NCBI GenBank assembly: GCA_025471175.1 | Contig: GCA_025471175.1_4338.1 | Reading direction: 5' to 3' (one strand) | DNA from: a phage | Length of the DNA stretch: 44,724 nt | Shown: positions 767-38,338 of the stretch, piece after piece | Layout of the letters: each line of letters begins with the position of its first letter | How positions within the stretch are numbered: the stretch's first letter is position 1 | Made by a program: the position numbers and the translations under genes | Notes under the pieces: model-generated | The model's database searches: none | The model's input: only the letters and a program-made list of their open reading frames with translations | What the model was told of the DNA's origin: nothing

Positions 767-1016
767 GCTTATATCCTCCGTATGACAGCCACGCCTGACG
801 AATCTGGCGTAGCGCAACTAATGTGATTAACGTCTCTGGCAGCGTCGGTGACATGCTGCCCTGTAACAGGTGGATACATCCGGCAGCGCAGACGATAGCA
901 GTCAGGATGTAGAGCACCCGACCAAATAGCCCATCGTCAACGCTGGGATGATACACATTAAACAGCGATGTACCCCCTATTGCCAGCATACCGCCGAACC
1001 AGAATAACTCATTCAT
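744..1016 (-). CDS. small membrane protein, holin/antiholin candidate
   Basis: 90 aa, two hydrophobic segments by eye, ATG start, overlaps lysozyme start; directly upstream of endolysin. Confidence 0.5.
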   Translation of the reverse strand: MNELFWFGGMLAIGGTSLFNVYHPSVDDGLFGRVLYILTAIVCAAGCIHLLQGSMSPTLPETLITLVALRQIRQAWLSYGGYKRVSKYLR

Positions 1017-1317
1017 CCGAGCCTCCTCGACGTGAGATGTATTCTCCGGCGACGATACCGGAGAGGCGGGAATAGATAGGCATCCAGAGAATAGCGATAA
1101 TGAATCCGAGGCCAGCTATCTCGCGCTCCCCGGTAATGCCGAACCATTGAGCTGCGAGAGGTGCGCCAAATACAGCGCAAGTGAAGCCAGTTGCGATAAA
1201 GCAGAAGCCGTCTATGGGACCAGAAATAACGGACTTATGTTGTCGTAGCCCGATTACCCCACCGGCTAGTGCGGCGGCGAGAAGCCACCCCGTCACTGTT
1301 TCAGTAAATTTATCCAA
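1009..1317 (-). CDS. holin-like membrane protein
   Basis: 102 aa with about three hydrophobic segments and charged C-terminus; TTG start preceded by GGAGGA; 8-nt overlap with next gene. Confidence 0.5.
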   Translation of the reverse strand: MDKFTETVTGWLLAAALAGGVIGLRQHKSVISGPIDGFCFIATGFTCAVFGAPLAAQWFGITGEREIAGLGFIIAILWMPIYSRLSGIVAGEYISRRGGSDE

Positions 1318-1381
1318 GATGAATCCTCCAGGTGCGTATTAAGTATGCAGTAACTGGAGGATACCACGGGTAGGAATTATC

Positions 1382-1816
1382 TTAATAGTTGTTTGGTAAT
1401 AACCTTGCCCCAGTGTTAGTGTCGAATTGCGCGGCTACAGTAATCGCACGTGTTGCCGTATTACCTAAATACATAGCCGCCAGTGCATAAGGTGCACCGG
1501 AACCGACGGCGGCAAAACCATCCGCAACAGGGATAACCGAACTTAGTGCACAATCCCAGGATTTGTAGATCTCTACTTTGCACAACGTTTCGATGTCTTT
1601 AACCCACACCAAAGCAGAGAAATCAAAATCGTAGTGCTTAGGTACTAAAATACTATCGTCCTTCACTAAAAGGATACCAGCCTCAGCATTGCCTGCTACA
1701 CCGATAACAGCAAAATCATTCTCGTATATCTTTGTGTCTGTGTTGTAATAGTTACCCCCGCACACAACACGGGTATCACTGGCCATCGTCTTTCCGTCAA
1801 ACGCGATAGTAGTCAT
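1382..1816 (-). CDS. HslV / proteasome beta-subunit-like Ntn-hydrolase peptidase
   Basis: 144 aa; N-terminal MTTIAFDG (Thr right after Met, as HslV MTTIV); KIYENDFAVIGVAGNAEAG and FAAVGSGAPYALAAMYLG resemble HslV KVIAGFAGGTADA and IAIGSGGPYAQAAARALL; GGAGG RBS; ATGA overlap with upstream gene. Confidence 0.55.
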   Translation of the reverse strand: MTTIAFDGKTMASDTRVVCGGNYYNTDTKIYENDFAVIGVAGNAEAGILLVKDDSILVPKHYDFDFSALVWVKDIETLCKVEIYKSWDCALSSVIPVADGFAAVGSGAPYALAAMYLGNTATRAITVAAQFDTNTGARLLPNNY

Positions 1817-2106
1817 TTGTGCCTCCAGATGTATTGTCGTCTCTGGGGTTTCGTCGGAATATCATCGTACCCCAGCGATTTCCAGTAATTAAATAGCCGG
1901 TTCGCAATAGCTGCGCGTTCCTTTGTCTTGAACTCACCGAGATTCACGGCCTTTCCGTTCTGGAACCCGCAGGCGCGTATAGCTTTGCGTCGGGCCTGAA
2001 TCTCAGGGTACATCGCGTTACCCCGACGCTTGTATATCCGGGTGTTCGCTCTCGGCGACAGCGGCGCAAGGCCGCTTCGTTTCAGGATGTCAGTTGCGAG
2101 GCTCAT
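1813..2106 (-). CDS. hypothetical protein (97 aa)
   Basis: ORF track 1813..2151; start moved to ATG at 2104-2106, which overlaps the upstream stop (ATGA coupling). Confidence 0.45.
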   Translation of the reverse strand: MSLATDILKRSGLAPLSPRANTRIYKRRGNAMYPEIQARRKAIRACGFQNGKAVNLGEFKTKERAAIANRLFNYWKSLGYDDIPTKPQRRQYIWRHK

Positions 2107-2297
2107 ATTCCGAGAATCTCGCGGGCCATTTCTTCTGTAACTTTCGAACAAGGTGCGTACATTACCTGTTCGGCGAATTCACGTAACTTTGCTTCAAGTT
2201 TCAGATAAGCGTCATACTCTACATAATCGCCGTATGCATACTCAGCCATCTCAGGCTCTGGCAGACCCCACGCTTTTACCTCATATCTCTGCACCAT
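2103..2297 (-). CDS. hypothetical protein (64 aa)
   Basis: ORF track 2103..2342; internal ATG at 2295-2297 overlaps upstream stop. Confidence 0.4.
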   Translation of the reverse strand: MVQRYEVKAWGLPEPEMAEYAYGDYVEYDAYLKLEAKLREFAEQVMYAPCSKVTEEMAREILGI

Positions 2298-2575
2298 CAA
2301 TCCACCCCTTCCACATGTGTAACCGACCCACAGTTCGCGCACTCGACGTAATCAGGGAACTGGTCTTTGTATTTCTGTAACTCAGCGTTCACTTCTGCCA
2401 GTCTTGACACAAGCCCCTCTATCTCCATGTCCGTAGCGGTTATGTAGTCCTGGAAACTGTCATCCAGTTCCTTGTAATCTTCGTATCTTACATAACGCCC
2501 TTCATGCGAGTCAGGGACAGGCGTTATATCTACTGCACCTGCAAAATCTTCTGTTAAGTCGTATCGTACAACCAT
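2297..2575 (-). CDS. hypothetical protein (about 92 aa)
   Basis: ORF track 2297..2581 (GTG); ATG at 2573-2575 has AGGAGAAG upstream; acidic, CxxC near C-terminus. Confidence 0.45.
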   Translation of the reverse strand: MVVRYDLTEDFAGAVDITPVPDSHEGRYVRYEDYKELDDSFQDYITATDMEIEGLVSRLAEVNAELQKYKDQFPDYVECANCGSVTHVEGVD

Positions 2576-2577
2576 AA

Positions 2578-2781
2578 TCACTTCTCCTGTTTACCAAGTC
2601 GCTTAGGTGAGCAGATAGCGCGTACCTCTGGGTCGTTGGGCTTGTCACCCTGAAACAGAAAGTGCGCGTTCTCTGCGGCGCGTGCCGCAGCCTGGCACGC
2701 ATCCAGTGAGTAAAACGTTTCTGTTGCCGCTAGTTGTAACTGGCATGCGGTAAGTGTCCAGATAAATAAGATGCTGGTCAT
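2578..2781 (-). CDS. small putative lipoprotein
   Basis: ORF track 2578..2796; ATG at 2779-2781 overlaps upstream stop; MTSILFIWTLTAC looks like signal peptide plus lipobox Cys. Confidence 0.4.
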   Translation of the reverse strand: MTSILFIWTLTACQLQLAATETFYSLDACQAAARAAENAHFLFQGDKPNDPEVRAICSPKRLGKQEK

Positions 2782-3302
2782 TTGGTCACCCCACATTTAG
2801 AGCACTGCTGTAAGTCGCTACACCACAGAACCAAACGATAGTCATGTTCACATTCCTGTGTGTCAATCTTGTATTCCACTATGTCTGCGTATGTTCCATC
2901 CCAAATCCACGACCGCTTTTCTGCTGCTACACTGTGTTTCGGCTCCTCCCCGTTGCGATACCGGATAAATACCATAGTCCCATCCGGCACAGGTTGTCGT
3001 GCACCATAATGCGGCCTCCAGGCGTTGTACTGAGTATTTTCTTTGCAGCAACCGGATTGCTCCATGGCATCGATGTATTCTCCAATGTCACCGGTAGACT
3101 TAGCTATCTCTTTACGCAAACGAACGACGGTGCTATTGGCGATATCAAGTTCTTTCTGTAACTCAGCCACCAGCGTCGACGCATCACGTAACTGATTCTT
3201 GAGTAACAACACCTCGTGTGCCAGGTCTTCACACTGGTTGCCATTTACCAGCTGCCGTAACTGGCCAATCAGGTACTCGAATACTTCGTTTTTGTTACCC
3301 AT
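2778..3302 (-). CDS. hypothetical protein, coiled-coil N-terminus
   Basis: 174 aa; ATG with AGGAGA RBS; first gene after promoter at 3333-3361. Confidence 0.55.
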   Translation of the reverse strand: MGNKNEVFEYLIGQLRQLVNGNQCEDLAHEVLLLKNQLRDASTLVAELQKELDIANSTVVRLRKEIAKSTGDIGEYIDAMEQSGCCKENTQYNAWRPHYGARQPVPDGTMVFIRYRNGEEPKHSVAAEKRSWIWDGTYADIVEYKIDTQECEHDYRLVLWCSDLQQCSKCGVTK

Positions 3303-3332
3303 CTCTGTCTCTCCTCTCGTTTGTGTAAATGA

Positions 3333-3361
3333 ATAGTAGCCTATTCTATCCCAGTGTGCAA
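3333..3361 (-). promoter_or_regulatory. sigma70-like promoter with AATAG-N4-CTATT element
   Basis: Read on minus strand: TTGCAC-N17-TACTAT; spacer/-10 carries AATAGtagcCTATT; ~25 nt upstream of gene start 3302. Confidence 0.5.
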
Positions 3362-3436
3362 GTAAATTTTATTAGTGTTTGTATTGTTGCATCTCCTGCA
3401 ATAGTCGCTTCGATTGTTGCGTTTGGTGAAATAGAA

Positions 3437-3475
3437 CAAAAATGAGAAAAATGATACGCTGCTGTGTAGCAGCGT
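3437..3475 (-). terminator. rho-independent terminator ending the 4543-3518 operon
   Basis: Hairpin acgctgct-gtgt-agcagcgt (3456-3475) followed on minus strand by U-rich run. Confidence 0.5.
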
Positions 3476-3517
3476 AAGTCACTCAGTAAAATCCCAAACT
3501 ATTGTTACAATATAACA

Positions 3518-3718
3518 TCACACTTCCGGCGGCTCGGGTAACGGCATCCAGTGGGTAACAAACTTATCGTAGTGATTCCAGAAAGGCTTTCTCGCATCAT
3601 CAGGGACGATGTAATAATCGTGCTGCACTGCGTTATTCAACGTTTCATACCCCAGGAACTCCTTATCCGTATACCCATTGCCCGGCAGCATCCCACTACA
3701 CTTAATCCACTTACCCAT
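3518..3718 (-). CDS. hypothetical protein (66 aa)
   Basis: ORF track; ATG start; last gene before terminator. Confidence 0.45.
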   Translation of the reverse strand: MGKWIKCSGMLPGNGYTDKEFLGYETLNNAVQHDYYIVPDDARKPFWNHYDKFVTHWMPLPEPPEV

Positions 3719-3721
3719 ATC

Positions 3722-3877
3722 TCACCTCGGATTCGCAACAGACAACACAACAGACAACACACCAGCTTTCCACGCCCGCCACGCGAGACGCGTCTTAACG
3801 TTCAGGTACTCTTTCTTCGAACCCTTGTTGACCGGCAGACCCTCCACGACGGCCCACCGTTCGAATGCTTCTCTCAT
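3722..3877 (-). CDS. hypothetical small protein (51 aa)
   Basis: Below ORF-track cutoff; ATG at 3875-3877 overlaps stop of upstream small ORF (ATGA); GAGG upstream. Confidence 0.35.
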   Translation of the reverse strand: MREAFERWAVVEGLPVNKGSKKEYLNVKTRLAWRAWKAGVLSVVLSVANPR

Positions 3878-4029
3878 ACCAGAACCTCGCATTCATCCCG
3901 ATACACGAACAATAACGACCCTTTCCACTCAATCATAAAACCATAATGGTTGCTGCTGAACGCCAGAAAAACATCACCTATCGAGATACCGAAATCGATA
4001 AGCCTGCGGTCAGTTATTCGAATTCTCAT
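3874..4029 (-). CDS. hypothetical small protein (51 aa)
   Basis: Below ORF-track cutoff; ATG at 4027-4029; stop overlaps next ATG. Confidence 0.3.
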   Translation of the reverse strand: MRIRITDRRLIDFGISIGDVFLAFSSNHYGFMIEWKGSLLFVYRDECEVLV

Positions 4030-4089
4030 ACCAACCCCCACAACGCGTGCGCCACGTAAACGGCGCTGACAATTAAAATAAACGGATAG

Positions 4090-4347
4090 TTATTCACGGC
4101 AACCTCCCTCAGAGTCGTCGGCACGAGCATCATGATTCGATGCCGTTCTGAATGTTACCGCTGGTGTGCCCAGGACATTCACGGTAAAGGCTTCACCATG
4201 TGATTGCTCTAAATCCCACTCATCACCTTCCTCGTCTAAAACGTAGAGACGACCGTCGTAGTGTACTTTCAACGAATACTCGTTGCCTTTTATAAACCAA
4301 CCGCCCATTTCTGCTTTAGACTCAATACAAATTAATTCTTCCATCAC
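4090..4347 (-). CDS. hypothetical protein (85 aa)
   Basis: ORF track; AAGGG RBS before ATG. Confidence 0.45.
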   Translation of the reverse strand: MMEELICIESKAEMGGWFIKGNEYSLKVHYDGRLYVLDEEGDEWDLEQSHGEAFTVNVLGTPAVTFRTASNHDARADDSEGGCRE

Positions 4348-4534
4348 TTCGCCCTTTGAATTTAAAATTGTTGCCTATGAGCTTCATTTCATACTCTCGG
4401 TAATACGCCGTGGAACTTAACCCGTGCTCCCTGAGTAAGCTAACGACATAAGAACTTCGGTACACTGTCGATTTCTTTTCAATAATACCTAAGCTACCGT
4501 ACATCGTTTTCACCAACTGACCCTTCCTAAACAT
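4322..4534 (-). CDS. hypothetical protein (about 70 aa)
   Basis: ORF track 4322..4543 (GTG); third in-frame ATG at 4532-4534 sits 8 nt after GAGGAG. Confidence 0.45.
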   Translation of the reverse strand: MFRKGQLVKTMYGSLGIIEKKSTVYRSSYVVSLLREHGLSSTAYYREYEMKLIGNNFKFKGRSDGRINLY

Positions 4535-4569
4535 AACCATCACTCCTCTGTCTCATCCCGATAAGTGAA

Positions 4570-4598
4570 TAGTATCCTATTATGTTGGGGTGTGCAAG
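4570..4598 (-). promoter_or_regulatory. sigma70-like early promoter (leftward)
   Basis: Minus strand TTGCAC-N17-TACTAT; a ~37-nt block here is the exact reverse complement of the block at 27502-27538. Confidence 0.55.
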
Positions 4599-4679: not shown

Positions 4680-4860
4680 AAGAGTGAGTGAGTGAGCTTG
4701 CGGTTCTGACCCACGGCAAATCAGTAACTTAGATATTTAGGCGGGAATTACAATAGACTTTGGCCCTTCCGAATGCGCCAGCGAGCCTCACTCCACACGT
4801 CGAGACGTGCTCGTTTCGCCTGCCGCGCACCGCGGTCGCTTGTTCATACTTCACAAGCTC
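4645..4860 (-). ncRNA. candidate ~200-nt leader RNA / sRNA, copy A
   Basis: Predicted transcript from promoter 4867-4895 to terminator at ~4645-4679; 5' ~110 nt homologous to copy B, including a 34-nt identical block (4830-4863). Confidence 0.3.
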
Positions 4861-4895
4861 AGGACGAGCTTAGCATATTTCTTAGTAAAAGTCAA
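4751..4895. repeat. copy A of a ~145-bp dispersed repeat (other copy 37062-37204)
   Basis: Left block caatagaNtNtggcccttccgaaNgcgNcagcg 29/33 identical; divergent ~45-nt middle; 34-nt perfect block ccgcggtcgcttgttcatacttcacaagctcagg; similar right flank. Confidence 0.7.
4867..4895 (-). promoter_or_regulatory. promoter P_A (extended -10), leftward
   Basis: Minus strand TTGACT-N17-TAAGCT with TGc before the -10; same architecture as P_B at 37176-37204. Confidence 0.5.
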
Positions 4896-7843: not shown

Positions 7844-7866
7844 AAAGGGGCGTTAAGCCCCTTCAC
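7844..7866. terminator. hairpin terminator between helicase and repressor genes
   Basis: ggggc-gttaa-gcccc stem-loop; U-run on minus-strand side; repressor stop codon lies in the loop. Confidence 0.4.
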
Positions 7867-8068
7867 CAAACGCCAGCCACTTGGCGTCTACTTCAAGCAC
7901 TTCGGCTAGTTTAAACAGCGTCGCCGGTCGGACGTCCTGAGTTACTCCTAGTGCAAGCTGGTTAATCGCGCCCTGGGAAACGCCGGTCAGGACAGCCAGA
8001 CGGCGCTGGGAGATGCCGAGTTCTTTACGACGTTGTTCTACACGGGTGCCTAGTTCAGATGGTTGCAT
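7853..8068 (-). CDS. XRE-family (Cro/CI-type) HTH transcriptional regulator
   Basis: 71 aa; RKELGISQRRLAVLTGVSQGAINQLALG is a classic HTH; AAGGAG RBS; lone minus-strand gene in the plus-strand module. Confidence 0.7.
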   Translation of the reverse strand: MQPSELGTRVEQRRKELGISQRRLAVLTGVSQGAINQLALGVTQDVRPATLFKLAEVLEVDAKWLAFGEGA

Positions 8069-17446: not shown

Positions 17447-17580
17447 ACATCATAGCCCCGATTCCGGCATTGCAAAAACGTATCAAGGAACTCGAAGAAG
17501 AGGTTCTACGACTACGCCAGCAAAGAGACGCCGCTAATGCGCAACTGGCGTTTGTACTGGAGAAGTTATCAGAAGAGTAG
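17443..17580 (+). CDS. hypothetical coiled-coil peptide (45 aa)
   Basis: ATG overlaps upstream stop; last plus-strand gene before terminator. Confidence 0.35.
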   Translation: MNIIAPIPALQKRIKELEEEVLRLRQQRDAANAQLAFVLEKLSEE

Positions 17581-17582
17581 AG

Positions 17583-17613
17583 AAAAGGCCCCGTTTGGGG
17601 CCTTAGTTTTATT
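17583..17613. terminator. bidirectional rho-independent terminator
   Basis: aggcccc-gttt-ggggcct hairpin flanked by A-run and T-run; between convergent genes. Confidence 0.6.
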
Positions 17614-24286: not shown

Positions 24287-26623
24287 TTAATACCCCGGCT
24301 GGTTTCGCGTAGCCCGGCGGGACTTGGAGATTGCACTGTTGCTGTCTTGTAACGCCGCCGATACTGTTTCACTGATGATAACACGTAACCGCCCTTCGTC
24401 GTCACGCTCTGTAACGGCGGAATCAACTCGTCCGGTGGTGTTGTTGACGATTGTCACGCTGTCACCGCCTGACTTGTTGCCGTTCTCGCCCATAATCTGG
24501 CGCATCTGTTCCGCGGTACGTACGCGTGACGCCCCTGCAGGCATAATAACTTCCGGCTTGTTACGTTCCGCGATAGTAGATAACTGACCTGCGGCTAAGT
24601 TACCGCCCTGCTCACGGGCCGAACGAATCTTACCTATGTTCGCCAGACCTGCGGCTATCGCGGCGGCGGCAGCCACCGGACCAAGTACCCAACCGACAAT
24701 AGGAATCGCGGACGCAGATTTATAAGCCTCGATGGCGGATGTGTATGTGGCTATTGTGGCCTGAGCGATAGCGAATGCTTTATACGCGGAGGACGCCTCG
24801 CCTAGCGATGACTTAATGTTGTCCGCCATCATGCCAAAAGCGTTACCGGTAGCGTTGGCACGTTTCAATGCGTACTGGTCGTTTATCGCGTTAACCGCTG
24901 CCTGGTACTGCTCCTCGTTAATCAGATTCTGTTCACGGTATCTATCAGCAACGTCCAGTTTTTGTTGTTCCTGAATCTCCAGAAGCTCAAGCTCGGCAGC
25001 ATTCTGGCCCATAATCTGAGCCATGAAGTCCTCGCCTTTCTGGTTCTTCTCCTGCCGTTCTTTCTCCCGCTTGGCGAGTTCTTCCTGACGTGCGGTGTCC
25101 GCCTCCAGCATAATTTGAGTTTTGGCGTTCTCGTATTGCTGGTCGCTAAGAAGCTGGTTGCCGTAAAACTCTTGTAGCTTGGTTAACTGTTGCTCCTGAT
25201 TAGCTTCTATTTTCTGGAATACGTCGTCATTGAGATGAATCGACTGGTAGTAGAAATCCTCCGCGGCTTTCTTCTGGCGCTCGAACGCGTCCGCAGCTTT
25301 CTTGGCGGCTTTTGCACCAGCATTATCATCTTCGGACCCGCCACCAGTACCAGTTACCTTAAATTTACTAAGCCCTTCTTCCTTAGCGGCTTCTTTGTCG
25401 ATGTCATATGCCGCGCGTTTAAGCGCGACGATATTTTGCTGAGCCTCCACCTGTTCGCGGAAACTTTTACGGGTCAGGTCCGCAACATCGCGCTGAGTAT
25501 CCAGTGCCATCCCTAGCTGGAAGTTAATGTTTTTTGCTACGTCTACAGATTCCCCTGGTGTGAAGGCTGCTTTCACCAACCGGCCAGCGTCCTGCGCCCC
25601 TTTAACCATATCTTCAAAGAAGCGCTCCATCGCGGTAAATTCTTCCGCGATGAAATCGAGCGCATCGGCTGCTGATTCCGCGATGGTTGTCGCCGTTTGT
25701 TCGCCGCTGTCGGTGATACTTTTACTGCTAAAATCCCAAAGTTCATTCAGTCCATTTATCGCGTCACCTACAAAACCAAATGCCGCGTCGAACGACATCT
25801 CTATCGCGCTTCCTACTTCCGACGCGATGTCACCCCACATACGCATCTCTGCGGCAAGTTCACCGGATGCAACCTGTGCGTTAAGTTCCTGGATTAAATC
25901 ATTGATGTATCGGATAGGTTCGGCGAGCGCACCAACATCAAGACTGGTAGCCAGTGTCATTTTTAACTGCGACCATGAGTCGCTGGCACTGGCTATGGCC
26001 CCGTTAAGTGTGTTAGCCTGGTCCGCCATAGCCCCAGCGAAGTTTACGTTACCAATGTTGAGCAGGTATTGCTCTATATCGGCAGCGCTCTTCTTAACCA
26101 CCGTAGTAGTGCCCTGGAATGTAAATTCAACATCGTCTTTGTTCTGCTTAGCCTTGATGCCGAATTCTTTAAGGCGCTCAAATTCAAACGTACTGGCGTC
26201 CGCAACGGCCTCAATCATCTGATTTAGGTCTTTACCCATAGCAGCGGCAGTGTTGCCATAGGAGCGCAACGCTTCTTCTGATGGTGTAAGACCAAGCGCC
26301 ACAAGTTTACGGAATCCCTCTACTGCCTGTTCAAGACCATACGGGGTGTCGCGCGCGAAGTCTTGCAGGATGCTTAATGCCTGTCTCGCCCCCTGCGTGC
26401 TTCCGGTTAGTGTTTTCAGGCTGGCGGACATCTTGTCCAGTTGCCGTTGGGAGTCTACCAGTTCCTGTGCGGCCTTGTACGCGGTAGCAGCGACGATGGA
26501 AGCGAGGCCCGCTACCGCGGCCCCGGCTACCTTTGCGGACTTGGAAAGGTTATCAAGACGGTCTGAGGTAGCTTTCGCGCCTTGCTCTGATACTTTTACA
26601 ACTAAACTAGCTACATCAGCCAT
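24287..26623 (-). CDS. tail tape measure protein
   Basis: 778 aa, Ala/Gln/Glu-rich helical repeats; downstream of G/GT chaperone genes. Confidence 0.85.
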   Translation of the reverse strand: MADVASLVVKVSEQGAKATSDRLDNLSKSAKVAGAAVAGLASIVAATAYKAAQELVDSQRQLDKMSASLKTLTGSTQGARQALSILQDFARDTPYGLEQAVEGFRKLVALGLTPSEEALRSYGNTAAAMGKDLNQMIEAVADASTFEFERLKEFGIKAKQNKDDVEFTFQGTTTVVKKSAADIEQYLLNIGNVNFAGAMADQANTLNGAIASASDSWSQLKMTLATSLDVGALAEPIRYINDLIQELNAQVASGELAAEMRMWGDIASEVGSAIEMSFDAAFGFVGDAINGLNELWDFSSKSITDSGEQTATTIAESAADALDFIAEEFTAMERFFEDMVKGAQDAGRLVKAAFTPGESVDVAKNINFQLGMALDTQRDVADLTRKSFREQVEAQQNIVALKRAAYDIDKEAAKEEGLSKFKVTGTGGGSEDDNAGAKAAKKAADAFERQKKAAEDFYYQSIHLNDDVFQKIEANQEQQLTKLQEFYGNQLLSDQQYENAKTQIMLEADTARQEELAKREKERQEKNQKGEDFMAQIMGQNAAELELLEIQEQQKLDVADRYREQNLINEEQYQAAVNAINDQYALKRANATGNAFGMMADNIKSSLGEASSAYKAFAIAQATIATYTSAIEAYKSASAIPIVGWVLGPVAAAAAIAAGLANIGKIRSAREQGGNLAAGQLSTIAERNKPEVIMPAGASRVRTAEQMRQIMGENGNKSGGDSVTIVNNTTGRVDSAVTERDDEGRLRVIISETVSAALQDSNSAISKSRRATRNQPGY

Positions 26624-26975
26624 CGTTTCTGCCCTCGAAAATAGCGTCTAAGCTCATGATGATGTCAGATTCAAACATGTCTATATTCTGGCCCGAAACG
26701 GTGCTGTATGCCACTAAATCCGACCATCTTAACTGTTCGCGCGGGTACATCTTGATGCCGTCGTCATCCACTCGGCGGGTAAATTTGATTTCCCGGTACT
26801 TCTCGAAGGTGGTTAATAGCTCAGGGGGGCATTCTGGCCCGGTATCCTGCGTTGCTTCCGGCGCGTCTTGCATAACCCCCATAGCAATTAGCGCGGCTTT
26901 ATGTCCGTCGGCAATGCTGTCAAACTCCCGCCGTTTGTGGCGGGTTATGAAGTTCCAACGGGCAAACTGGAGCAA
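26616..26975 (-). CDS. tail assembly chaperone T segment (expressed as G-T fusion by -1 frameshift)
   Basis: Frame is open upstream of the TTG and overlaps the 3' end of the G gene in the -1 frame. Confidence 0.5.
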   Translation of the reverse strand: MLQFARWNFITRHKRREFDSIADGHKAALIAMGVMQDAPEATQDTGPECPPELLTTFEKYREIKFTRRVDDDGIKMYPREQLRWSDLVAYSTVSGQNIDMFESDIIMSLDAIFEGRNDG

Positions 26976-26980: not shown

Positions 26981-27397
26981 CTACTTTTCCTGCAATTGGT
27001 GAAGCTGTTCGTTGTGGAAAACAACAACGTGTTCAGCGAGGCGTTTATATTGTGAGAAAAGAGTGTTCAGGTTCTCTTTATTAAATTCATCGTCGAGACT
27101 CCAACCGTTAACCAGTTCAAGTGCTAACTGGCGGTTAAGGTCCGTCGCGGCGTCTTCCATCTTAATATTGTATTCCGAGAAATCTTTCAGTTCCTCACAT
27201 TTATCACGAAGCGGTTTCAATTTACCTAATGCCGCGCGGTACGCAAGTGTAAACGCCCTCATAGCTTTAACGGCAACGTCTGCCTCCGGTGAAACAACGT
27301 TCAGCCACTCCCCTGAATCGGTGCCGTCTTTCAGTGGTATTGGCATACGGGCGCCTTTTTCTGCCTCAGCTTCGTAATAAAAATCAGAAAGTTTCAT
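26981..27397 (-). CDS. tail assembly chaperone (gpG-like)
   Basis: 138 aa acidic protein immediately upstream of T segment and tape measure. Confidence 0.6.
   Translation of the reverse strand: MKLSDFYYEAEAEKGARMPIPLKDGTDSGEWLNVVSPEADVAVKAMRAFTLAYRAALGKLKPLRDKCEELKDFSEYNIKMEDAATDLNRQLALELVNGWSLDDEFNKENLNTLFSQYKRLAEHVVVFHNEQLHQLQEK
26984..26990 (-). other. candidate -1 programmed frameshift site
   Basis: Minus strand GGAAAAG (CAG GAA AAG TAG) directly before the G stop; -1 frame continues into T ORF. Confidence 0.45.
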
Positions 27398-27504
27398 TCT
27401 TTAATCCTTTGGTTAAGAGGTTACTGGTTAAGGTTAATGCGCCAGACGGGAACCACCCGCTTTTCGTGTGCGACACTAGGCGCAAAATAATTCTAACACA
27501 TTAC

Positions 27505-27533
27505 TTGCACACCCCAACATAATAGGATACTAT
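27505..27533 (+). promoter_or_regulatory. sigma70-like promoter of the moron
   Basis: TTGCAC-N17-TACTAT; ~37 nt identical (reverse complement) to early-left promoter region 4563-4599. Confidence 0.55.
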
Positions 27534-27574
27534 TCACTTACACCAACAATGTTAACTCAAACAGGAGCTACCCC

Positions 27575-27766
27575 ATGACAGGTATTACTATGTTCTTCTT
27601 AATCATTATCGTTTTAGTTTATTTTATCCCATTTCTCGTGGCGCATATGCGCAACCATAAAGCTAAATTAGCGATATTCATGGCTAATCTGTTTCTCGGT
27701 TGGGTTCTGCTGCCGTGGGTATTTATTTTAATCTGGGCGTGCAACTCGAATGTCAAAGAGAAGTGA
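27575..27766 (+). CDS. Imm-like superinfection immunity membrane protein
   Basis: 63 aa, two hydrophobic segments; YFIPFLVAHMRNHKAKLAIFMANLFLGWVLLPWVFILIWA matches the remembered Imm_superinfect pattern; AGGAG RBS. Confidence 0.55.
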   Translation: MTGITMFFLIIIVLVYFIPFLVAHMRNHKAKLAIFMANLFLGWVLLPWVFILIWACNSNVKEK

Positions 27767-27805
27767 GCTAGTATAGGACAAATCCTAAACACGAGGAAGT
27801 AAAGC

Positions 27806-28936
27806 ATGGCTCATAAGAAAATAACCGACGAACAGTTACGGGAAGAATTGAACGCCGGAACAAAAATTATTGATATCTCACGTAAGTATGGAATCTCAGA
27901 CCGCGTTATCCGTATCCGTAAAGCGAAGCTGGCTAAGAAAGGTGTAGGCCACGGTCGCGACGTTAGTCACCTTGTGCCTGACGGCTACAAGATTAAAGGT
28001 ACGTCGTCTCTGGTGGACGAGTTCGGCAACACTAAACTGCAATGGGTTAAGACCGACACTGACGCAGAACGTCAGGTCGAGTTGATGAAAGCTGTAATCG
28101 AGGGCATGAAGTCAGAGATTACGCCGGTTGCGCCTGTTAAAGCCGTTCGCGCCAAACGTGACGATAAACTACTTAATCTTTACACTGTATCTGATTTCCA
28201 TCTCGGTATGCTGGCCTGGGCTGACGAGAGCGGCGACGACTGGGACATGAAGATTGCAGAAGACCTGTTCTCTCGATGGTTCGACGCGGCATTCCAGAAA
28301 GCACCGGACGCGGGAACAGGAGTTATTAACCTGCTGGGCGACCTTGCGCACTTCGATAGTCTGGATGCGGTTACCCCCGCAAGTGGTCACGTTCTTGATG
28401 CGGACACTCGCTATCAGAAACTTGTCCGCTACATGATTCGTATGGTCCGCCGTGTTGTCGGTATGGCGCTGGTTAAGCATAAAAATGTTCGCTTGCTTAT
28501 CGTGCAAGGAAACCACGACGAAAGCGGAATGATTTGGTTAGCTGAGATGTTTAGTACGCTGTACGACAATGAGCCTTGTGTGTTCGTCGATACGTCGCCG
28601 GATGTTTACAAGATGGTCCAACACGGCAAAACTACGCTGTTCTTTCACCACGGGCATAAGGCGCGATTCGACGCTATCGAACCGGTAATGATTGCCAAGT
28701 TCCGCAAAGCGTTCGGCGAGAGTGTTTACAGCTACGCCCACGTAGGCCATCTGCACCACCAGAAGATTGTAGAAAGCCGTAACATGATTGTTGAGCAACA
28801 CCGCACCTTAGCGGCTAAAGACGCCTACGCCTCGCGCGGCGGATGGATGTCGGGCCGTAGTGCAAATGTAATTACTTATAGCGCCGAATATGGCGAGGTC
28901 GCACGTTTAATTATTTCACCGGAGATGCTGGGATGA
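27806..28936 (+). CDS. HTH-domain calcineurin-like metallophosphoesterase
   Basis: 376 aa; N-terminal HTH (DISRKYGISDRVIRIRKAK); phosphoesterase motifs SDFH, GDLAHFD, GNHDE, HHGH, GHLHH in canonical order. Confidence 0.65.
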   Translation: MAHKKITDEQLREELNAGTKIIDISRKYGISDRVIRIRKAKLAKKGVGHGRDVSHLVPDGYKIKGTSSLVDEFGNTKLQWVKTDTDAERQVELMKAVIEGMKSEITPVAPVKAVRAKRDDKLLNLYTVSDFHLGMLAWADESGDDWDMKIAEDLFSRWFDAAFQKAPDAGTGVINLLGDLAHFDSLDAVTPASGHVLDADTRYQKLVRYMIRMVRRVVGMALVKHKNVRLLIVQGNHDESGMIWLAEMFSTLYDNEPCVFVDTSPDVYKMVQHGKTTLFFHHGHKARFDAIEPVMIAKFRKAFGESVYSYAHVGHLHHQKIVESRNMIVEQHRTLAAKDAYASRGGWMSGRSANVITYSAEYGEVARLIISPEMLG

Positions 28937-29133
28937 AAGATATGTATGAATGCACCGATGTGAGTCCGTACGCGGAGAAAAATGGATTCGAAGTAGGCGC
29001 TGTATATGAAGGGGTCACCCTAGAGAACGGCGACGTAAGAATGTATTCGCCTAAATATCGCAGCTTCTTTGAAATAGGCAACATTAACGAGTCAGGCATA
29101 GCCAGATTTAAGAGAGTTAACAGTGACAAATAA
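28933..29133 (+). CDS. hypothetical protein (66 aa)
   Basis: ATGA overlap with upstream gene. Confidence 0.45.
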   Translation: MKDMYECTDVSPYAEKNGFEVGAVYEGVTLENGDVRMYSPKYRSFFEIGNINESGIARFKRVNSDK

Positions 29134-29353
29134 ATACAACCGCACAATGACAAACATTCACGGCAGCACTATGACAGTAGACGTTTACGATGTTCTCCGT
29201 GCCTTCGACATCCGTGACCCTGCACTACAGCACGCATTGAAGAAACTATTGTGTATGGGTCTTCGCGGGCACAAGGACACCGGAACCGACTTAGCGGAAG
29301 CAATTGAAAGTCTGGAGAAGTTACGGGAGTACCATAGTAATATTGATGAGTGA
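29123..29353 (+). CDS. small phage protein, possibly DUF3310-like
   Basis: 76 aa; GTG with AAGAGAG upstream; motif match recalled from memory only. Confidence 0.4.
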   Translation: MTNKYNRTMTNIHGSTMTVDVYDVLRAFDIRDPALQHALKKLLCMGLRGHKDTGTDLAEAIESLEKLREYHSNIDE

Positions 29354-29355
29354 GA

Positions 29356-29385
29356 AAAAGGCCCCGAAAGGGGCCTTAGTTTTAT
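29356..29385. terminator. bidirectional rho-independent terminator
   Basis: aaggcccc-gaaa-ggggcctt hairpin with A-run and T-run flanks; same stem as terminators at 17583 and 37854. Confidence 0.6.
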
Positions 29386-30014
29386 CGTTGTGACTTAATT
29401 ACAGAAACAGCTCTTGGGTATATTCTCCCATCTATGGAATCCATAAGCGGCTTAAGTTCTTCTGCTATTTCCAATTTCCGCAACGTTCTGACCTTGATGG
29501 CTTCGTCCAAATCAATAAAATCGCCTAAGTTTTCTCGCACCCCGGTTATGGGGTTGTTGACACGGCATCGTATCTTGCCGTTTGTTTTTCTATAAGTAAG
29601 ACCTATTGGTAGGTCTCCTCTAACTGCCGCGCTGTCGGTTAGGAAGTTGTTTAAAACTCTCGGGACAAAGATGCATGTCTCCGGTGAGTATTCTTTGGTG
29701 TCTGTAAGTAAATCCTTGTCTACATGCCAACCATCTACGTAATTATCTTTATACCATTTAAAGTAGTTGGAGAAATACAGCCTGTCTTCGCATACTACCA
29801 CACCTGCGTATGTTGGGTGCTTAGCACCCCCGTGGTAGCACCTGAATATCATCGCATACCAAATATCGTACACTGGGTGGTTAACAGACTTTTTGCCGTT
29901 GAAAATACTGGTGGTAAAATCAGCGTCGTTGATACCGACACCGCAGATTGTTTTACGGCATGATATCGCCCGTTTTGATGCAGGTATCTTTTCAAATTCT
30001 TCATACAGAAACAT
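29382..30014 (-). CDS. putative HNH/His-Me finger endonuclease with AP2-like domain
   Basis: 210 aa; N-terminal YDIWYAMIFRCYH and WHVDKD...N pattern; C-terminal YRKTNGKIRCRVNNPITGVRENLGDF resembles AP2-type domain; GAGGTG RBS. Confidence 0.45.
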   Translation of the reverse strand: MFLYEEFEKIPASKRAISCRKTICGVGINDADFTTSIFNGKKSVNHPVYDIWYAMIFRCYHGGAKHPTYAGVVVCEDRLYFSNYFKWYKDNYVDGWHVDKDLLTDTKEYSPETCIFVPRVLNNFLTDSAAVRGDLPIGLTYRKTNGKIRCRVNNPITGVRENLGDFIDLDEAIKVRTLRKLEIAEELKPLMDSIDGRIYPRAVSVIKSQR

Positions 30015-30121: not shown

Positions 30122-31294
30122 TTATACGTAACTGATACGTTGAATTACGATGGACGACTGGTACTGATTGCCTGTGGACTGCCCTTCTATACTTTGGGTA
30201 ATTGATTCCGGGCCAGATATTTCTGGTGTGACCGCCGTAAGTTCGGCGCGTTTCAGACTGAAAGACATAGCCCCGTTCACCCCCGCCAGAATAGAATTAA
30301 TCTCTACCTGCTGCTCGTTGATAAACTTCTGAATCATCGCCATGTCGTACAGCTTGCCGGAGATAGAGAAGGTGTTAGCCGCGCGTCCACGTTCCACGAA
30401 CGCCACGCTACTGTTGCCGAGTTCGAACTGCGCGGATGCGCTGTTGTCGTTGGTGATGGTCAGAGTATCGCAACGTAACGGCGTAGAACCGTCGAACACA
30501 GACACATCAACCGAAGAGAACGGCTCATCAGTGAAGGTTACTTGCGAGAAATCAGAACCCGCTGGCCGTGCAGAAAGAATCTCCTGACTCAGGCCAATGA
30601 ACGGGAAACTACCGGTGACCATAGCGTTAACCGCCTGCTCTACGGTGAAGCCGGAAATTTCCACGCCTTTGGTCAGCATGTACGCGTCCGGGTTACCACA
30701 CTGGCCCTTGAACCATGTCAGAATAGAGAACGTCCTACACGCATTACCGGTTTCCAGTTTGTCGCCAGTTTTTGCGTCAGTGGTTACTGTCTCTGCTGTC
30801 AGCGTGTGCTGAATACCTGCGCCCGTAACTACCAGAGTGGAAACCGCGGTCACGATAAACGGTTTTGCGTTGTCGCCGGTTAAGTCGGTGAACGCAATCA
30901 GGTCGCCAACTTCTACACCGTCAGTAATGAAGCTACCGGCAGCGCGGGTGAATGTTTTACCTGCTGGGGCGACCGTAATTTCGGCGCCAGTAATCTCTAC
31001 CCCATCTTGCCACGTAGACGTCATCGCGCCCGCGAGGAAATCATCCTGACTACGTGAGCTAAGTTCGATGGCGTACTCCCCGCTAACCTGTTTGTTACCG
31101 GTGCGGATGGATGTGGTTTCTCGGCTGCCGTCCAGTTCGTTGGAAGTCAGCGCATCGCGGGTTACAGCGGGGACACCGCCAGTGTTACGCAACGGCGACC
31201 ATACCGGGTTAGTCGGTGTTACGCCAGGGGTAGTCTCCGCCACATAGAATTGCGCGGTATTCGCGCCCTTAAAAGGAGTTGTAGCCATATTCAC
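30122..31294 (-). CDS. major tail (tube) protein, putative
   Basis: 390 aa, Thr/Ser/Gly-rich; last of the coupled neck/tail genes. Confidence 0.5.
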   Translation of the reverse strand: MNMATTPFKGANTAQFYVAETTPGVTPTNPVWSPLRNTGGVPAVTRDALTSNELDGSRETTSIRTGNKQVSGEYAIELSSRSQDDFLAGAMTSTWQDGVEITGAEITVAPAGKTFTRAAGSFITDGVEVGDLIAFTDLTGDNAKPFIVTAVSTLVVTGAGIQHTLTAETVTTDAKTGDKLETGNACRTFSILTWFKGQCGNPDAYMLTKGVEISGFTVEQAVNAMVTGSFPFIGLSQEILSARPAGSDFSQVTFTDEPFSSVDVSVFDGSTPLRCDTLTITNDNSASAQFELGNSSVAFVERGRAANTFSISGKLYDMAMIQKFINEQQVEINSILAGVNGAMSFSLKRAELTAVTPEISGPESITQSIEGQSTGNQYQSSIVIQRISYV

Positions 31295-36997: not shown

Positions 36998-37169
36998 TAG
37001 TCCTTATCATTTAAACATAGAAACGGCGTAATCTCAGTAAACCAGTTACTTTTTACACAAGCAATAGAGTATGGCCCTTCCGAACGCGTCAGCGTAACTA
37101 CACTCAGGACTTACGTCCCGCTCCGTTACCTGCCCGCGCCGCGGTCGCTTGTTCATACTTCACAAGCTC
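36961..37169 (-). ncRNA. candidate ~200-nt leader RNA / sRNA, copy B
   Basis: Predicted transcript from P_B (37176-37204) to hairpin 36976-36995; homologous to copy A; no other promoter seen before the late operon. Confidence 0.3.
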
Positions 37170-37204
37170 AGGTGGAGCTTATCATATTTTCAGTGAAAAG
37201 TCAA
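37062..37204. repeat. copy B of the ~145-bp dispersed repeat
   Basis: See copy A; 34-nt identical block at 37139-37172. Confidence 0.7.
37176..37204 (-). promoter_or_regulatory. promoter P_B (extended -10), candidate late promoter
   Basis: Minus strand TTGACT-N17-TAAGCT with TGa before -10; same as P_A. Confidence 0.5.
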
Positions 37205-37269: not shown

Positions 37270-37299
37270 TTTACAGACACCAACATAATAGGGTACTAT
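37270..37299 (+). promoter_or_regulatory. sigma70-like promoter with AATAG element
   Basis: TTTACA-N18-TACTAT; other strand reads AATAGtaccCTATT; AGGAGA RBS then ATG 37327. Confidence 0.5.
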
Positions 37300-37326
37300 T
37301 CAGTTAAATTAAACAGGAGATGATAA

Positions 37327-37848
37327 ATGGTTACTACAGTAATTACTTTCCCTGCGTATGTAGGGGCGAAAATATGCAGGGCTAAAAATGATGTTCGCTA
37401 CTATTTGAACGCTTTTTACATAGACCCTGAAGGATTGATAGTGTCTACGGACGGTCATAGATTGTTCTGCGACAATGTGAAGACCAACGTTGAGAAAGGG
37501 ACTCTCATAGACATCAAAGGGAGAGAGCCTTCTAAATTTAACTACGCAGAGGTAAACCACGACAACGGCAGTGTATCTTTCTATGACGATAATCGTGCGC
37601 TTATATGTACACTTCCGGTAGATGTTGTAGAAGGAAACTTTCCTGACTGGAGACGCGTGGCGCACATCACACCGGGTGTTGTCGACAGTATAGGGTTCAC
37701 TCTGCGCTATTTGGCAGACGCGTACAAGATTTCTAAGGCATACAAAAATGAAATTGCTCGTTTCGATTTCCAGGACCAAACCAGAGGATGCAAAATACAA
37801 TTTTCAAACACGGCCTTTATGGTGTTAATGCCTGCGCGATTTAAATAA
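37327..37848 (+). CDS. truncated DNA polymerase III beta sliding clamp (DnaN)-like protein
   Basis: 173 aa; DVRYYLNAF...STDGHRLFC, GNFPDWRRV, IGFTLRYLADA and C-terminal FMVLMPARFK parallel E. coli DnaN VRYYLNGM...TDGHRLAV, GRFPDYRRV, IGFNVSYVLDVL and YVVMPMRL (recalled from memory). Confidence 0.55.
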   Translation: MVTTVITFPAYVGAKICRAKNDVRYYLNAFYIDPEGLIVSTDGHRLFCDNVKTNVEKGTLIDIKGREPSKFNYAEVNHDNGSVSFYDDNRALICTLPVDVVEGNFPDWRRVAHITPGVVDSIGFTLRYLADAYKISKAYKNEIARFDFQDQTRGCKIQFSNTAFMVLMPARFK

Positions 37849-37853
37849 AACTA

Positions 37854-37877
37854 AGGCCCCATTACAGGGCCTTTTAT
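37854..37877. terminator. bidirectional rho-independent terminator
   Basis: aggccc-cattaca-gggcct then TTTTAT; between convergent genes. Confidence 0.55.
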
Positions 37878-38338
37878 CATTCTGGCTTAGTAACCTTCGC
37901 CGCTTTACTTACCACCTCTACACCATCGGCATCAGTAACCTTGACGAAGTAATCACCTGCCGCGTTGACAGTAAGAGACAAAGCTTCTTCTGGTGCGTTA
38001 ACGACTTCCTTCCCGTCTTTGTACCAGGTCAGCGAATATGGTGCTTTACCTGCCTTAACTTCGACAGTGATAGTTGCGCTGCCGTCTGCCAGTTCCTGGT
38101 CCTGCGGTTGCACAGAGAAATACACATCGCCCGCGTCCGCCAGATACGGAATCTCGTAAAGCATACCAGCCGCTGGTAGCGCAATGCCTGTTTTATCAGC
38201 AAACGGCATATCGTCTACGGGCGTACCTAGTACACTTTCGTCCCCAATAGACACCACGTTCTCACCGGAGCCAGACACGCGAGCAAACTGGACAACGCGA
38301 CGCGACGGTACATCAGTTACTTTGAAAAAGCCCATCAT
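37877..38338 (-). CDS. Ig-like domain protein
   Basis: 153 aa; YSLTWYKDGKEV...GDYFVKV is an Ig-like signature; start overlaps head morphogenesis stop. Confidence 0.5.
   Translation of the reverse strand: MMGFFKVTDVPSRRVVQFARVSGSGENVVSIGDESVLGTPVDDMPFADKTGIALPAAGMLYEIPYLADAGDVYFSVQPQDQELADGSATITVEVKAGKAPYSLTWYKDGKEVVNAPEEALSLTVNAAGDYFVKVTDADGVEVVSKAAKVTKPE

Follow-up and report, generated by a model that had tools for sequence, protein, structure and literature searches.

An antisense island of non-structural genes within the tail operon of a Kagunavirus coliphage: an Imm-family membrane protein and a conserved HTH-metallophosphoesterase with a putative role in DNA metabolism

To our knowledge, the function of the Imm family has been demonstrated only for the T4 protein. 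In published genomes of Kagunavirus and Jerseyvirus phages (fEg-Eco19, Schulenburg/Schulenberg, fFiEco03, phiEc3, Jersey and SETP3), a cassette located at the position considered here, on the strand opposite to the tail genes, encodes products that carry the annotations 'superinfection immunity protein' and 'metallophosphoesterase / DNA repair exonuclease / phosphoesterase', and the Imm gene of these phages has been discussed previously (PMC6763661, PMC8425127). The family of T1 gp16, to which the metallophosphoesterase (MPE) of this cassette is compared below, is persistent in 508 of 522 Drexlerviridae, where its gene counts among the core genes (PMC13164509). Two phage MPEs have been linked to destruction of the host genome, namely T5 A1, a predicted metallo-phosphatase that is both required and sufficient for degradation of the host's DNA (bioRxiv 10.64898/2026.04.02.716235), and gp48 of the cluster A mycobacteriophage A10ZJ24, an early MPE which bears the five motifs and damages the genomic DNA of its host, thereby blunting the expression of defence genes (PMC12287305).

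The window analyzed here (the whole 44,724-nucleotide contig GCA_025471175.1_4338.1) belongs to a virulent Kagunavirus coliphage (Guernseyvirinae), and its cassette is standard in Kagunavirus and Jerseyvirus genomes, where it had been annotated before, with near-identical copies in GenBank. An earlier note on this DNA had described a plus-strand cassette of four genes, and four coupled open reading frames (g1 to g4) do occupy the plus strand at 27575-29353, opposite to the tail genes, between the tail chaperone genes on one side and an HNH endonuclease gene and the tail tube gene on the other:

4562-4598, minus strand, predicted twin copy of the cassette promoter, heading a leftward block of small genes that runs from 4543 down to 278 and ends with holin and endolysin
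24287-26623, minus strand, tape measure gene
26981-27397 and 26616-26975, minus strand, tail assembly chaperone genes (PF08748, PF23812)
27504-27540, plus strand, predicted class-A promoter: TTGCAC (27505-27510), 17-nt spacer, TACTAT (27528-27533)
27575-27766, plus strand, g1, 63 aa
27806-28936, plus strand, g2, 376 aa
28933-29133, plus strand, g3, 66 aa
29123-29353, plus strand, g4, 76 aa
29358-29377, both strands, predicted bidirectional intrinsic terminator: 8-bp GC-rich hairpin with U-runs on both strands
29382-30014, minus strand, free-standing HNH homing endonuclease gene (PHROG 953, E = 1.2e-65)
30122-31294, tail tube gene (PF18906), to the right of the HNH gene

The start of g3 overlaps the stop of g2 (ATGA), g3 and g4 overlap by 11 nt, and Shine-Dalgarno-like motifs can be read ahead of g1, g2 and g3 (AGGAG, GAGGAAG and GGAG). 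The HNH gene, which is absent from the earlier note, is a neighbor of the island and lies outside the operon; among the loci that were fetched, only one (L018) has an HNH homolog at the same position, and a few GenBank Kagunaviruses are also annotated with HNH here. The hairpin at 29358-29377, with a folding energy of -22.3 kcal/mol on the plus strand (z = -5.6) and -15.4 on the minus strand (z = -4.5), is predicted to close both the transcript of the island and the convergent transcript of the HNH and tail tube genes. A repeat search detected related hairpins at 17572-17612 and 37845-37882, and an Rfam scan of the whole window returned no RNA family.

Compared with the sigma-70 consensus, the TTGCAC-17-TACTAT site agrees at only 7 of 12 positions, and a consensus promoter scan did not report it; the prediction is backed by four copies of the same architecture, located 35-45 nt 5' of a gene start and in the same orientation, both here and in phiEc3. 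The earlier note's exact inverted copy of an early-left promoter is indeed present, with 27504-27540 and 4562-4598 being 100% complementary over 37 nt, and weaker copies of this element lie at 37271-37306 (86%) and 3319-3365 (81%). In phiEc3, the cassette and left-arm copies differ at 4 positions, whereas in this genome they are identical over the 37 nt. The palindrome AATAGGATACTATT at 27521-27534 overlaps the -10 box of the cassette promoter and conforms to the motif AATAG-N4-CTATT, which has 7 exact sites in the window (11 with at most one mismatch, against 1.2 expected), all of them preceding non-structural genes, with zero exact matches before structural genes. The same seven sites are found in phiEc3, and 46 of 50 related loci keep the palindrome 5' of their cassette, the central 4 nt being variable. 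For phage fBC-Eco01, this motif has been published as tgAATAGTa-ccTATTat-T (PMC9825357). A leftward promoter-like site at 27555-27527, a possible restart for the tail genes, did not exceed chance level in the promoter scan, and phiEc3 does not conserve it. A gene for a 71-aa Cro/DicA-like repressor, at 7853-8068, adjoins paired palindromes at 8099 and 8143.

The promoter motif is common to all non-structural transcription units. Early expression of the island, which the earlier note thought probable, is plausible. In the single Kagunavirus RNA-seq study, the Imm gene was grouped with the DNA polymerase and methylase genes in a class labelled as the last to peak (PMC12645636).

The product of g1 matches the Imm_superinfect family over the entire model (PF14373, positions 1-42 of 42; E = 7.7e-14; 51.8 bits, gathering threshold 27.9) as well as PHROG 1039, 'immunity to superinfection' (E = 2.5e-23), and its Kyte-Doolittle profile contains two hydrophobic stretches, at approximately residues 4-24 and 31-56, with RNHKAK between them, in agreement with the Imm-like membrane protein of the earlier note. 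The g1 product is an inner-membrane protein of the T4 Imm family and, by analogy with T4, a probable superinfection-exclusion factor. A small envelope protein is encoded in this slot in every one of the 50 loci examined; in 16 of these relatives, g1 is replaced by a different one, namely a protein of about 107-120 aa with a signal-peptide-like N-terminus in 15 (PHROG 14165 in both of those scanned) and a protein with one TM in the remaining relative. These alternating envelope proteins are a natural set for studies of superinfection exclusion in siphophages.

The conserved core gene of the island is g2, which on sequence evidence encodes a helix-turn-helix (HTH) domain fused to a complete MPE domain of the T1 gp16 / Rtp61 family. 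The combination of an HTH with the complete calcineurin-like motif set, proposed previously from the sequence, held up well: the protein carries the full set DxH / GDxxH / GNHD / H / GHxH, and in an alignment of 66 diverse homologs that are 33-48% identical to g2, there is no variation at D130, H132, G178, D179, N236, H237, H282, G314 or H317, and conservation at H182 and H315 is at least 90%. The AlphaFold2 (AF2) model, which is of high confidence, shows a three-helix N-terminal HTH and the MPE fold, and two methods place it closest to the folds of DNA nucleases, namely DP1, Mre11 and SbcD. Comparison with PHROG 704 gave E = 5.7e-163 over residues 4-375, and a tblastn search against Rtp61 ('highly similar to gp16 of phage T1') aligned residues 1-375 at 44.6% identity. 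The protein scores below the Pfam gathering thresholds (18.2 bits against 21.5 for PF00149 and 20.1 against 27 for PF12850); the family is too divergent for these models, and the assignment rests on motifs and fold. Single-sequence and profile searches of PDB with g2 yielded nothing significant (profile E = 0.2), and there were no NCBIfam or PADLOC matches for g1 to g4. The g2 family is represented in 2,049 phage records and comprises 4,502 clusters at 50% identity.

The HTH raises the question of whether g2 could be primarily a transcription regulator that binds AATAG-N4-CTATT, its MPE domain being a sensor or inactive. We consider this extremely improbable: weak profile matches of the N-terminal domain to LuxR/GerE and sigma region 4 HTH domains, and the label 'transcriptional regulator' in some GenBank records, would fit such a protein, but the invariance of the metal-binding and catalytic residues across the 66 homologs argues for an active enzyme, the T1-like and podophage relatives retain the HTH despite their unrelated genomes, and the Cro/DicA-like 71-aa protein, encoded near the 8099/8143 palindromes, is a better candidate for the palindrome binder than g2. 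A nuclease of this fold might also act on phage DNA and not on the host chromosome, as a recombination or replication enzyme in SbcD/Mre11-like processing of ends and hairpins or in concatemer maturation, a reading that we regard as doubtful. A gene for a Rad50/SbcC partner, as known for Mre11 / SbcD nucleases, is annotated nowhere in the closely related phiEc3 genome and beside g2 in none of the loci examined.

In all 50 Guernseyvirinae-type loci compared, the MPE gene separates the tail chaperone gene from the tail tube gene and is encoded on the other strand, and there is no locus (0 of 50) in which the tail chaperone gene directly adjoins the tail tube gene. Presence/absence variation is confined to the accessory slots (g1, g3 and g4), and accordingly the unit as a whole is not an indel. 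Of the earlier 'moron' proposal, the promoter-to-terminator layout stands, with both signals predicted, and the insertion part does not. DNA of the cassette occurs in none of 5,426 complete E. coli genomes, which indicates that it is not prophage cargo.

The gene neighborhoods of g2 homologs bear on its function. A block consisting of the MPE gene, a gene for a PNKP-type HAD phosphatase (PF25109, HAD_PNKP, E = 4.5e-20) and a dNMP kinase gene (PHROG 139) is present in 17 of the 50 Kagunavirus-type loci. The same block, with identities of 52%, 53% and 47%, is found in the Pseudomonas podophage MR4 beside a ligase gene and T7-like exo- and endonuclease genes, and in T1-like phages the MPE gene likewise adjoins a PNKP-type phosphatase and a dNMP kinase (PMC13164509). 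These recurrent neighbors point to DNA and nucleotide metabolism as the setting in which g2 would function.

Another candidate pathway is nucleic acid end healing, as carried out by T4 Pnkp/Rnl and bacterial Pnkp. If g2 belonged to it, the protein would be a 2',3'-cyclic phosphodiesterase or 3'-phosphatase that repairs RNA or DNA cut by ribotoxins of the host, together with a PNKP-type phosphatase, a kinase and a ligase, for which the adjoining HAD_PNKP gene and, in MR4, a ligase gene two genes further on could be adduced. The adjacent kinase, however, belongs to the dNMP kinase PHROG and not to a polynucleotide kinase family, the cassette in the window has neither phosphatase nor kinase, and the HTH of g2 would be left unexplained, so that we judge this possibility to be quite improbable.

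The neighborhoods also bear on the idea, put forward in the earlier note, that all four genes are a single superinfection-exclusion or anti-defence module, in which the MPE would destroy a cyclic-nucleotide immune signal or dephosphorylate a defence component, with Imm, g3 and g4 cooperating. The Imm family membership of g1, the fast turnover of the accessory slots (as in arms-race loci), the presence of Rv0805, a cyclic-nucleotide phosphodiesterase, among the top Foldseek matches to g2 (E = 6e-8), and the existence of one phage MPE that acts in counter-defence, though via DNA damage (PMC12287305), are all compatible with such a module. It is nonetheless unlikely: g2 occurs without g1, g3 and g4 in T1-like, Dhillonvirus and podophage genomes, with neither Imm, g3 nor g4 as neighbors of the MPE gene in the Drexlerviridae loci examined; T1-like genomes carry g4 homologs elsewhere; the N-terminal HTH, which T1-like relatives share in matches to the entire protein, speaks for DNA as the substrate; no PADLOC match was obtained; and it is nucleotide-metabolism genes that recur next to g2. 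An anti-defence role is still conceivable: one early phage MPE that disrupts host DNA has been shown to work in counter-defence (PMC12287305).

The two genes at the 3' end of the island are, as had been noted, small and of obscure affinity. The g3 gene is a Kagunavirus orphan ORF that occupies a variable slot after the MPE gene; it was found in only 26 Kagunavirus records, with at least 92% identity (5 protein clusters), and its product has no match in Pfam, PHROG, NCBIfam or PADLOC. In other relatives, the same slot holds the HAD_PNKP phosphatase gene or an HNH endonuclease gene, or is empty. Equivalence of g3 to the standalone SH3 protein encoded 3' of the MPE gene in Drexlerviridae was considered and rejected, as neither rtp62 nor its Veterinaerplatzvirus counterpart showed any similarity to g3.

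The g4 product matches PHROG 2452 (E = 8.9e-37), where it aligns to the C-terminal ~70 residues of longer proteins. This domain is present in 777 phage records and has 20 invariant columns across 21 homologs; the AF2 model (pLDDT 87.9) has a beta-hairpin and three helices, for which no PDB fold match was detected, and single-sequence and profile searches of PDB returned nothing significant. In the 50 loci, g4 and the dNMP kinase gene are never found together. This mutual absence, along with one GenBank label, gave rise to the idea that g4 is a nucleotide kinase similar to T7 gp1.7, whose C-terminal domain is DUF3310 (PF11753). We rejected this assignment: g4 has no PF11753 match even at E = 10, T7 gp1.7 itself matches that family at E = 4.5e-23, and hhalign of g4 with T7 gp1.7 gave a probability of 0.6%. 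Outside Guernseyvirinae, the linkage between g2 and g4 does not hold.

On balance, we consider it probable that the cassette is a separately regulated non-structural unit, placed antisense within the tail operon, which pairs an exclusion protein of the envelope with a DNA nuclease that takes part in the phage's DNA and nucleotide metabolism. Host RNA polymerase would initiate at the class-A promoter, where the palindromic, operator-like site overlaps the -10 box. Given that this palindrome is common to every other non-structural unit of the genome, the island would be switched with the early, replication and left-arm (holin/endolysin) genes and not with the surrounding tail genes. A single transcript would span the four translationally coupled ORFs and halt at the bidirectional hairpin. 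The g1 protein would then enter the inner membrane and, on the model of T4 Imm, hinder genome entry by later-arriving phages, and g2 would bind DNA through its HTH and hairpin module and cut phosphodiester bonds at a two-metal center of the Mre11/SbcD/DP1 type, with DNA as its most likely substrate and the DNA and nucleotide metabolism of the phage as the setting. Under this scheme, g3 and g4 would be exchangeable accessory genes.

As the specific role of g2, we favor degradation of the host chromosome, a step that would yield nucleotides and silence the host, as has been demonstrated for two unrelated early MPEs of other phages. It is possible, and we suggest tentatively, that in T1-like, Dhillonvirus and Guernseyvirinae phages the HTH-MPE is the nuclease that degrades the host chromosome, a one-polypeptide functional counterpart of T5 A1 plus A2 that is co-expressed with a fast-evolving envelope exclusion protein. 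If so, destruction of host DNA would both supply nucleotides, which would account for the linked phosphatase and dNMP kinase, and silence inducible defences. Few uncharacterised enzyme families are as widespread among the virulent siphophages of enterobacteria as that of g2. Knowledge of its role, be it host DNA destruction, phage DNA repair or the disarming of defences, would account for a conserved step in the takeover of the host by phages of genera that several papers evaluate for phage therapy.

Compared with the published Kagunavirus and Jerseyvirus genomes, some of which share the gene order, with 93-96% DNA identity over the full 2 kb, this genome differs in detail only, namely in its g3 plus g4 variant and the neighboring HNH insertion. 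The putative exclusion protein g1 resembles T4 Imm in being a small, two-helix inner-membrane protein with a PF14373 match well over threshold; it is shorter (63 aa) and comes from an unrelated siphovirus, whose DNA enters the cell by a different route. T1 gp16 and Rtp61 (PHROG 704, 'DNA repair exonuclease' of Drexlerviridae) resemble g2 over the full length, HTH included, with ~44-47% identity and the same catalytic residues. The T1-like phages differ in that their MPE gene closes the replication block, immediately 5' of the lysis cassette, and shares the strand of its neighbors, with no antisense island in the tail operon and no Imm gene ahead. Mre11/SbcD and the exonuclease subunit DP1 of archaeal PolD lack the additional N-terminal HTH and hairpin of g2, in which no clear equivalent of the capping domain was detected after the MPE core and which has no polymerase partner.

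A10ZJ24 gp48, from another host and phage lineage, is likened to g2 by description. Homology of g2 to T5 A1 is not supported (hhalign probability 21.8% over 20 columns around GNHD), and that of its N-terminus to T5 A2 was rejected (0.9%); A1, furthermore, belongs to PHROG 1745 as opposed to PHROG 704, has 556 aa and is devoid of a fused HTH. The likeness to T5 is one of organization: in both cases a non-structural MPE, pre-early in T5 and, as we infer, early in this phage, is paired with a DNA-binding function, supplied in T5 by the separate protein A2, and a small membrane-protein gene adjoins the MPE gene. By this analogy, T5 A1 together with A2 is a candidate model for the way in which g2 works.

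The cassette is an antisense island within the tail genes, and its four plus-strand ORFs, the repeat in front of them and the hairpin behind them are located where the earlier note had placed them. The exact inverted 37-nt promoter copy that the note described is borne out as well, and two weaker copies of the repeat were found (37271-37306 and 3319-3365).

Features of the island and its flanks
Left flank, minus strand: two tail assembly chaperone ORFs and the tape measure gene
27504-27540: 37-nt exact inverted repeat of 4562-4598
27575-27766, plus strand: gene 1 (ORF call), Imm-family membrane protein
27806-28936, plus strand: gene 2 (ORF call), HTH-metallophosphoesterase (MPE)
28933-29133, plus strand: gene 3 (ORF call), 66 aa
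29123-29353, plus strand: gene 4 (ORF call), 76 aa
29358-29377: hairpin with U-runs on both strands
Right flank: HNH endonuclease gene (29382-30014, minus strand) and the tail tube gene

The genes 2, 3 and 4 are coupled through overlapping stop and start codons, and the hairpin folds far better than shuffled sequence. The free-standing HNH gene, missing from the previous description, sits between the terminator of the island and the tail tube gene; given that, among the fetched loci, L018 alone has a counterpart at this position, along with a few GenBank Kagunaviruses annotated accordingly, it is probably a homing-endonuclease insertion. A leftward promoter-like site (27527-27555, minus strand; TTAACA-17-TAGTAT), the -10 box of which overlaps that of the cassette, faces the tail chaperone and tape measure genes and could restart tail transcription past the bidirectional terminator; in the promoter scan, such sites occur at chance frequency, and this one is degraded in phage phiEc3 (TAGTAC).

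A megablast search with the region 27400-29400 retrieved 450 phage records, nearly all from Escherichia Kagunavirus and Salmonella Jerseyvirus (subfamily Guernseyvirinae); in 40 of these records, query coverage reaches 80% or more. The top full-length relatives (Ec1-ASingh, fEg-Eco19, fFiEco03 and Schulenburg; 93-96% identity) already carry the labels 'superinfection immunity protein' and 'metallophosphoesterase / phosphoesterase / DNA repair exonuclease', and as an annotated feature the cassette is not new; it is ordinary within Guernseyvirinae. Because the relatives are phages and the cassette DNA has no match across 5,426 complete E. coli genomes, the window is a virulent siphophage genome rather than prophage DNA.

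The reference proteins were mapped onto 73 IMG/VR loci and the fetched GenBank loci, and 50 loci, including the window, show the Guernseyvirinae arrangement. In every one of these, the MPE gene separates the tail chaperone genes from the tail tube gene and lies on the strand opposite to theirs, and the slots around it vary.

Gene content downstream of the MPE gene in the 50 loci
Genes 3 and 4: 7
Gene 4 alone or with HNH or Rha-ANT: 20
HAD phosphatase and dNMP kinase: 17
HAD phosphatase and gene 4: 1
Nothing: 3
Truncated loci: 2

Gene 4 and the dNMP kinase never occur together, each occupying the last conserved slot, and the HAD phosphatase is paired with the kinase in 17 of the 18 loci that encode it, the exception being phiEc3 (L002), where it is followed by gene 4. 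Since the MPE gene is constant and the flanking slots are not, the island is old and fixed: its core stays the same and its accessory slots change fast. Of the original proposal of a promoter-to-terminator moron possibly active in superinfection exclusion or anti-defence, the observation stands and the interpretation is only partly supported: comparison with related genomes shows a fixed island rather than a recent moron.

Gene 1 encodes a protein with two hydrophobic helices that matches PF14373 well above the threshold as well as PHROG 1039, which assigns it by sequence to the T4 Imm family, in agreement with the initial reading; the Imm gene has been noted previously in Schulenberg and Jersey-type phages (PMC6763661, PMC8425127). 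A small envelope protein is always encoded upstream of the MPE gene: Imm in 34 of the 50 loci, a ~107-120-aa protein with a signal-peptide-like N-terminus in 15 (both of those scanned fall into PHROG 14165) and a one-TM protein in the remaining one. The loci lacking Imm are L016, L025, L027, L028, L034, L037, L039, L041, L043, L045, L047-L050, L067 and L079. By its content, this slot looks like a set of alternating superinfection-exclusion alleles.

Gene 3 is confined to 26 Kagunavirus records and five protein clusters, with no other matches. Gene 4 belongs to PHROG 2452, and longer proteins of other phages carry its counterpart as their conserved C-terminal ~60-70 residues; the structural model of gene 4 is confident (pLDDT 87.9) and has no PDB neighbour. 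A 'DUF3310' label in one GenBank record was unsupported on checking.

For gene 2, the Pfam metallophosphoesterase models fall slightly under the threshold, and the match to PHROG 704 is strong (E = 5.7e-163). The family is very large and widespread (4,502 clusters at 50% identity, E <= 1e-3; 2,049 phage records), including Rtp61, labelled 'highly similar to gp16 of phage T1', and proteins from Dhillonvirus, Klebsiella T1-like (Drexlerviridae), Vibrio, roseophage and Campylobacter phages and the Pseudomonas podophage MR4. The residues D130, H132, G178, D179, N236, H237, H282, G314 and H317 are invariant across 66 diverse homologues, and the enzyme can thus be presumed active. In the AlphaFold2 model (pLDDT 92.2), a three-helix HTH (8-44) is followed by a β-hairpin (61-85), a helix (87-104) and an MPE core (119-376), consistent with the HTH-calcineurin-like phosphoesterase fusion originally recognized. 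In profile searches, the N-terminus shows weak similarity to LuxR/GerE and sigma region 4 HTH domains. Comparison with the loci L005 and L004 reveals a mosaic within gene 2. Residues 47-110 share 81% identity with the Jersey phage protein, against only 48% in the MPE core; conversely, the core is 85% identical to that of Dhillonvirus PaulFeyerabend, with 52-54% in the HTH and middle segments. This pattern suggests recombination between domain modules.

Within the 37-nt repeat lies the palindrome AATAG-N4-CTATT, which has 7 exact sites in the window and 11 with at most one mismatch, against 1.2 expected by chance. Aligned contexts define two promoter architectures.

Promoter classes around the palindrome
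Class A, TTGCAC-17-TACTAT, palindrome over the -10 box: 3332 and 4568 (both leftward), 27521 (cassette), 37287
Class B, TTGACA-17-TATAGT, palindrome in the spacer: 8143, 10855, 14630, before rightward replication genes

Each site has a non-structural gene shortly downstream in the matching orientation, and no exact palindrome precedes a structural gene in the window. Jointly, the two classes precede all non-structural transcription units of the window. The same seven sites are present in phiEc3, where the cassette and left-arm copies differ at four positions; hence the perfect 37-nt identity is specific to the lineage of the window. The palindrome upstream of the cassette is kept in 46 of the 50 loci, with fixed arms and a variable centre, as would be expected of a protein-binding site. 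The motif was already reported as seven 'phage promoters' in the fBC-Eco01 genome paper (PMC9825357). An obvious candidate for its binder and regulator is a Cro/DicA-like 71-aa HTH protein encoded beside the paired sites 8099 and 8143 (7853-8068, minus strand). We treat the class A promoter as predicted because it agrees with the sigma-70 consensus in only 7 of 12 positions, and the scan does not call it. Early expression of the cassette, likewise, is something we infer; in the sole Kagunavirus RNA-seq study, the Imm gene shares a temporal class with the DNA polymerase and methylase genes, separate from the capsid and tail genes, and this class is labelled as the last to peak (PMC12645636). 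The 'early-left' arm under the twin promoter (278-4543, minus strand) is not purely early-type: it comprises small unknown ORFs followed by an HslV-like peptidase homologue (1382-1816), a holin (1009-1317) and an endolysin (278-817).

A second antisense island (37271-37882) with a class A promoter is embedded in the head and packaging genes. Its ORF (37327-37848, 173 aa) belongs to PHROG 3007, 'RusA-like', with a weak sliding-clamp-like match, and its bidirectional terminator is related to the hairpin 29358-29377. The ~140 nt upstream (37062-37204) repeat the region to the right of the left-arm promoter (4751-4895) at 86-88% identity. The two islands share the promoter class, and the product of the second is likewise of the DNA-metabolism type.

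The gene neighbourhoods of gene 2 homologues bear on its role. In Kagunavirus SCS44, the two genes after the MPE gene encode a PNKP-type HAD phosphatase (PF25109, E = 4.5e-20) and a dNMP kinase (PHROG 139). Podophage MR4 has all three genes in this order too (52%, 53% and 47% identity), within a DNA-metabolism block in which T7-like exo- and endonuclease genes come before them and a ligase gene follows. In an independent 2026 survey of Drexlerviridae, the 'DNA repair exonuclease' persists in 508 of 522 genomes, its commonest immediate followers, where the SH3 gene is lacking, are polynucleotide kinase and dNMP kinase, and these were interpreted as extending the replication module towards nucleotide supply (PMC13164509). 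Imm, gene 3 and gene 4 are absent as MPE neighbours in these T1-like phages. The best-supported reading has three parts: the island would be a non-structural transcription unit co-regulated with the other non-structural genes of the genome, gene 1 would be an envelope exclusion factor, and gene 2 would be a DNA-directed two-metal nuclease serving the DNA and nucleotide metabolism of the phage. Less probably, gene 2 would be a recombination or repair nuclease, a signal-degrading anti-defence enzyme, in line with the anti-defence part of the original proposal, or, as the least likely readings, an end-healing enzyme or a regulator. What the widespread HTH-MPE family actually does is a worthwhile question, albeit not one specific to the window.

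As such a nuclease, gene 2 may destroy the host chromosome, as two unrelated early phage MPEs do: host DNA degradation requires A1 of T5, which also suffices for it (bioRxiv 10.64898/2026.04.02.716235), and gp48 of mycobacteriophage A10ZJ24 silences defence genes by damaging host DNA (PMC12287305). Because gene 2 falls outside the A1 family and its N-terminus does not resemble T5 A2, we propose that it might work like these proteins and claim no family membership for it.
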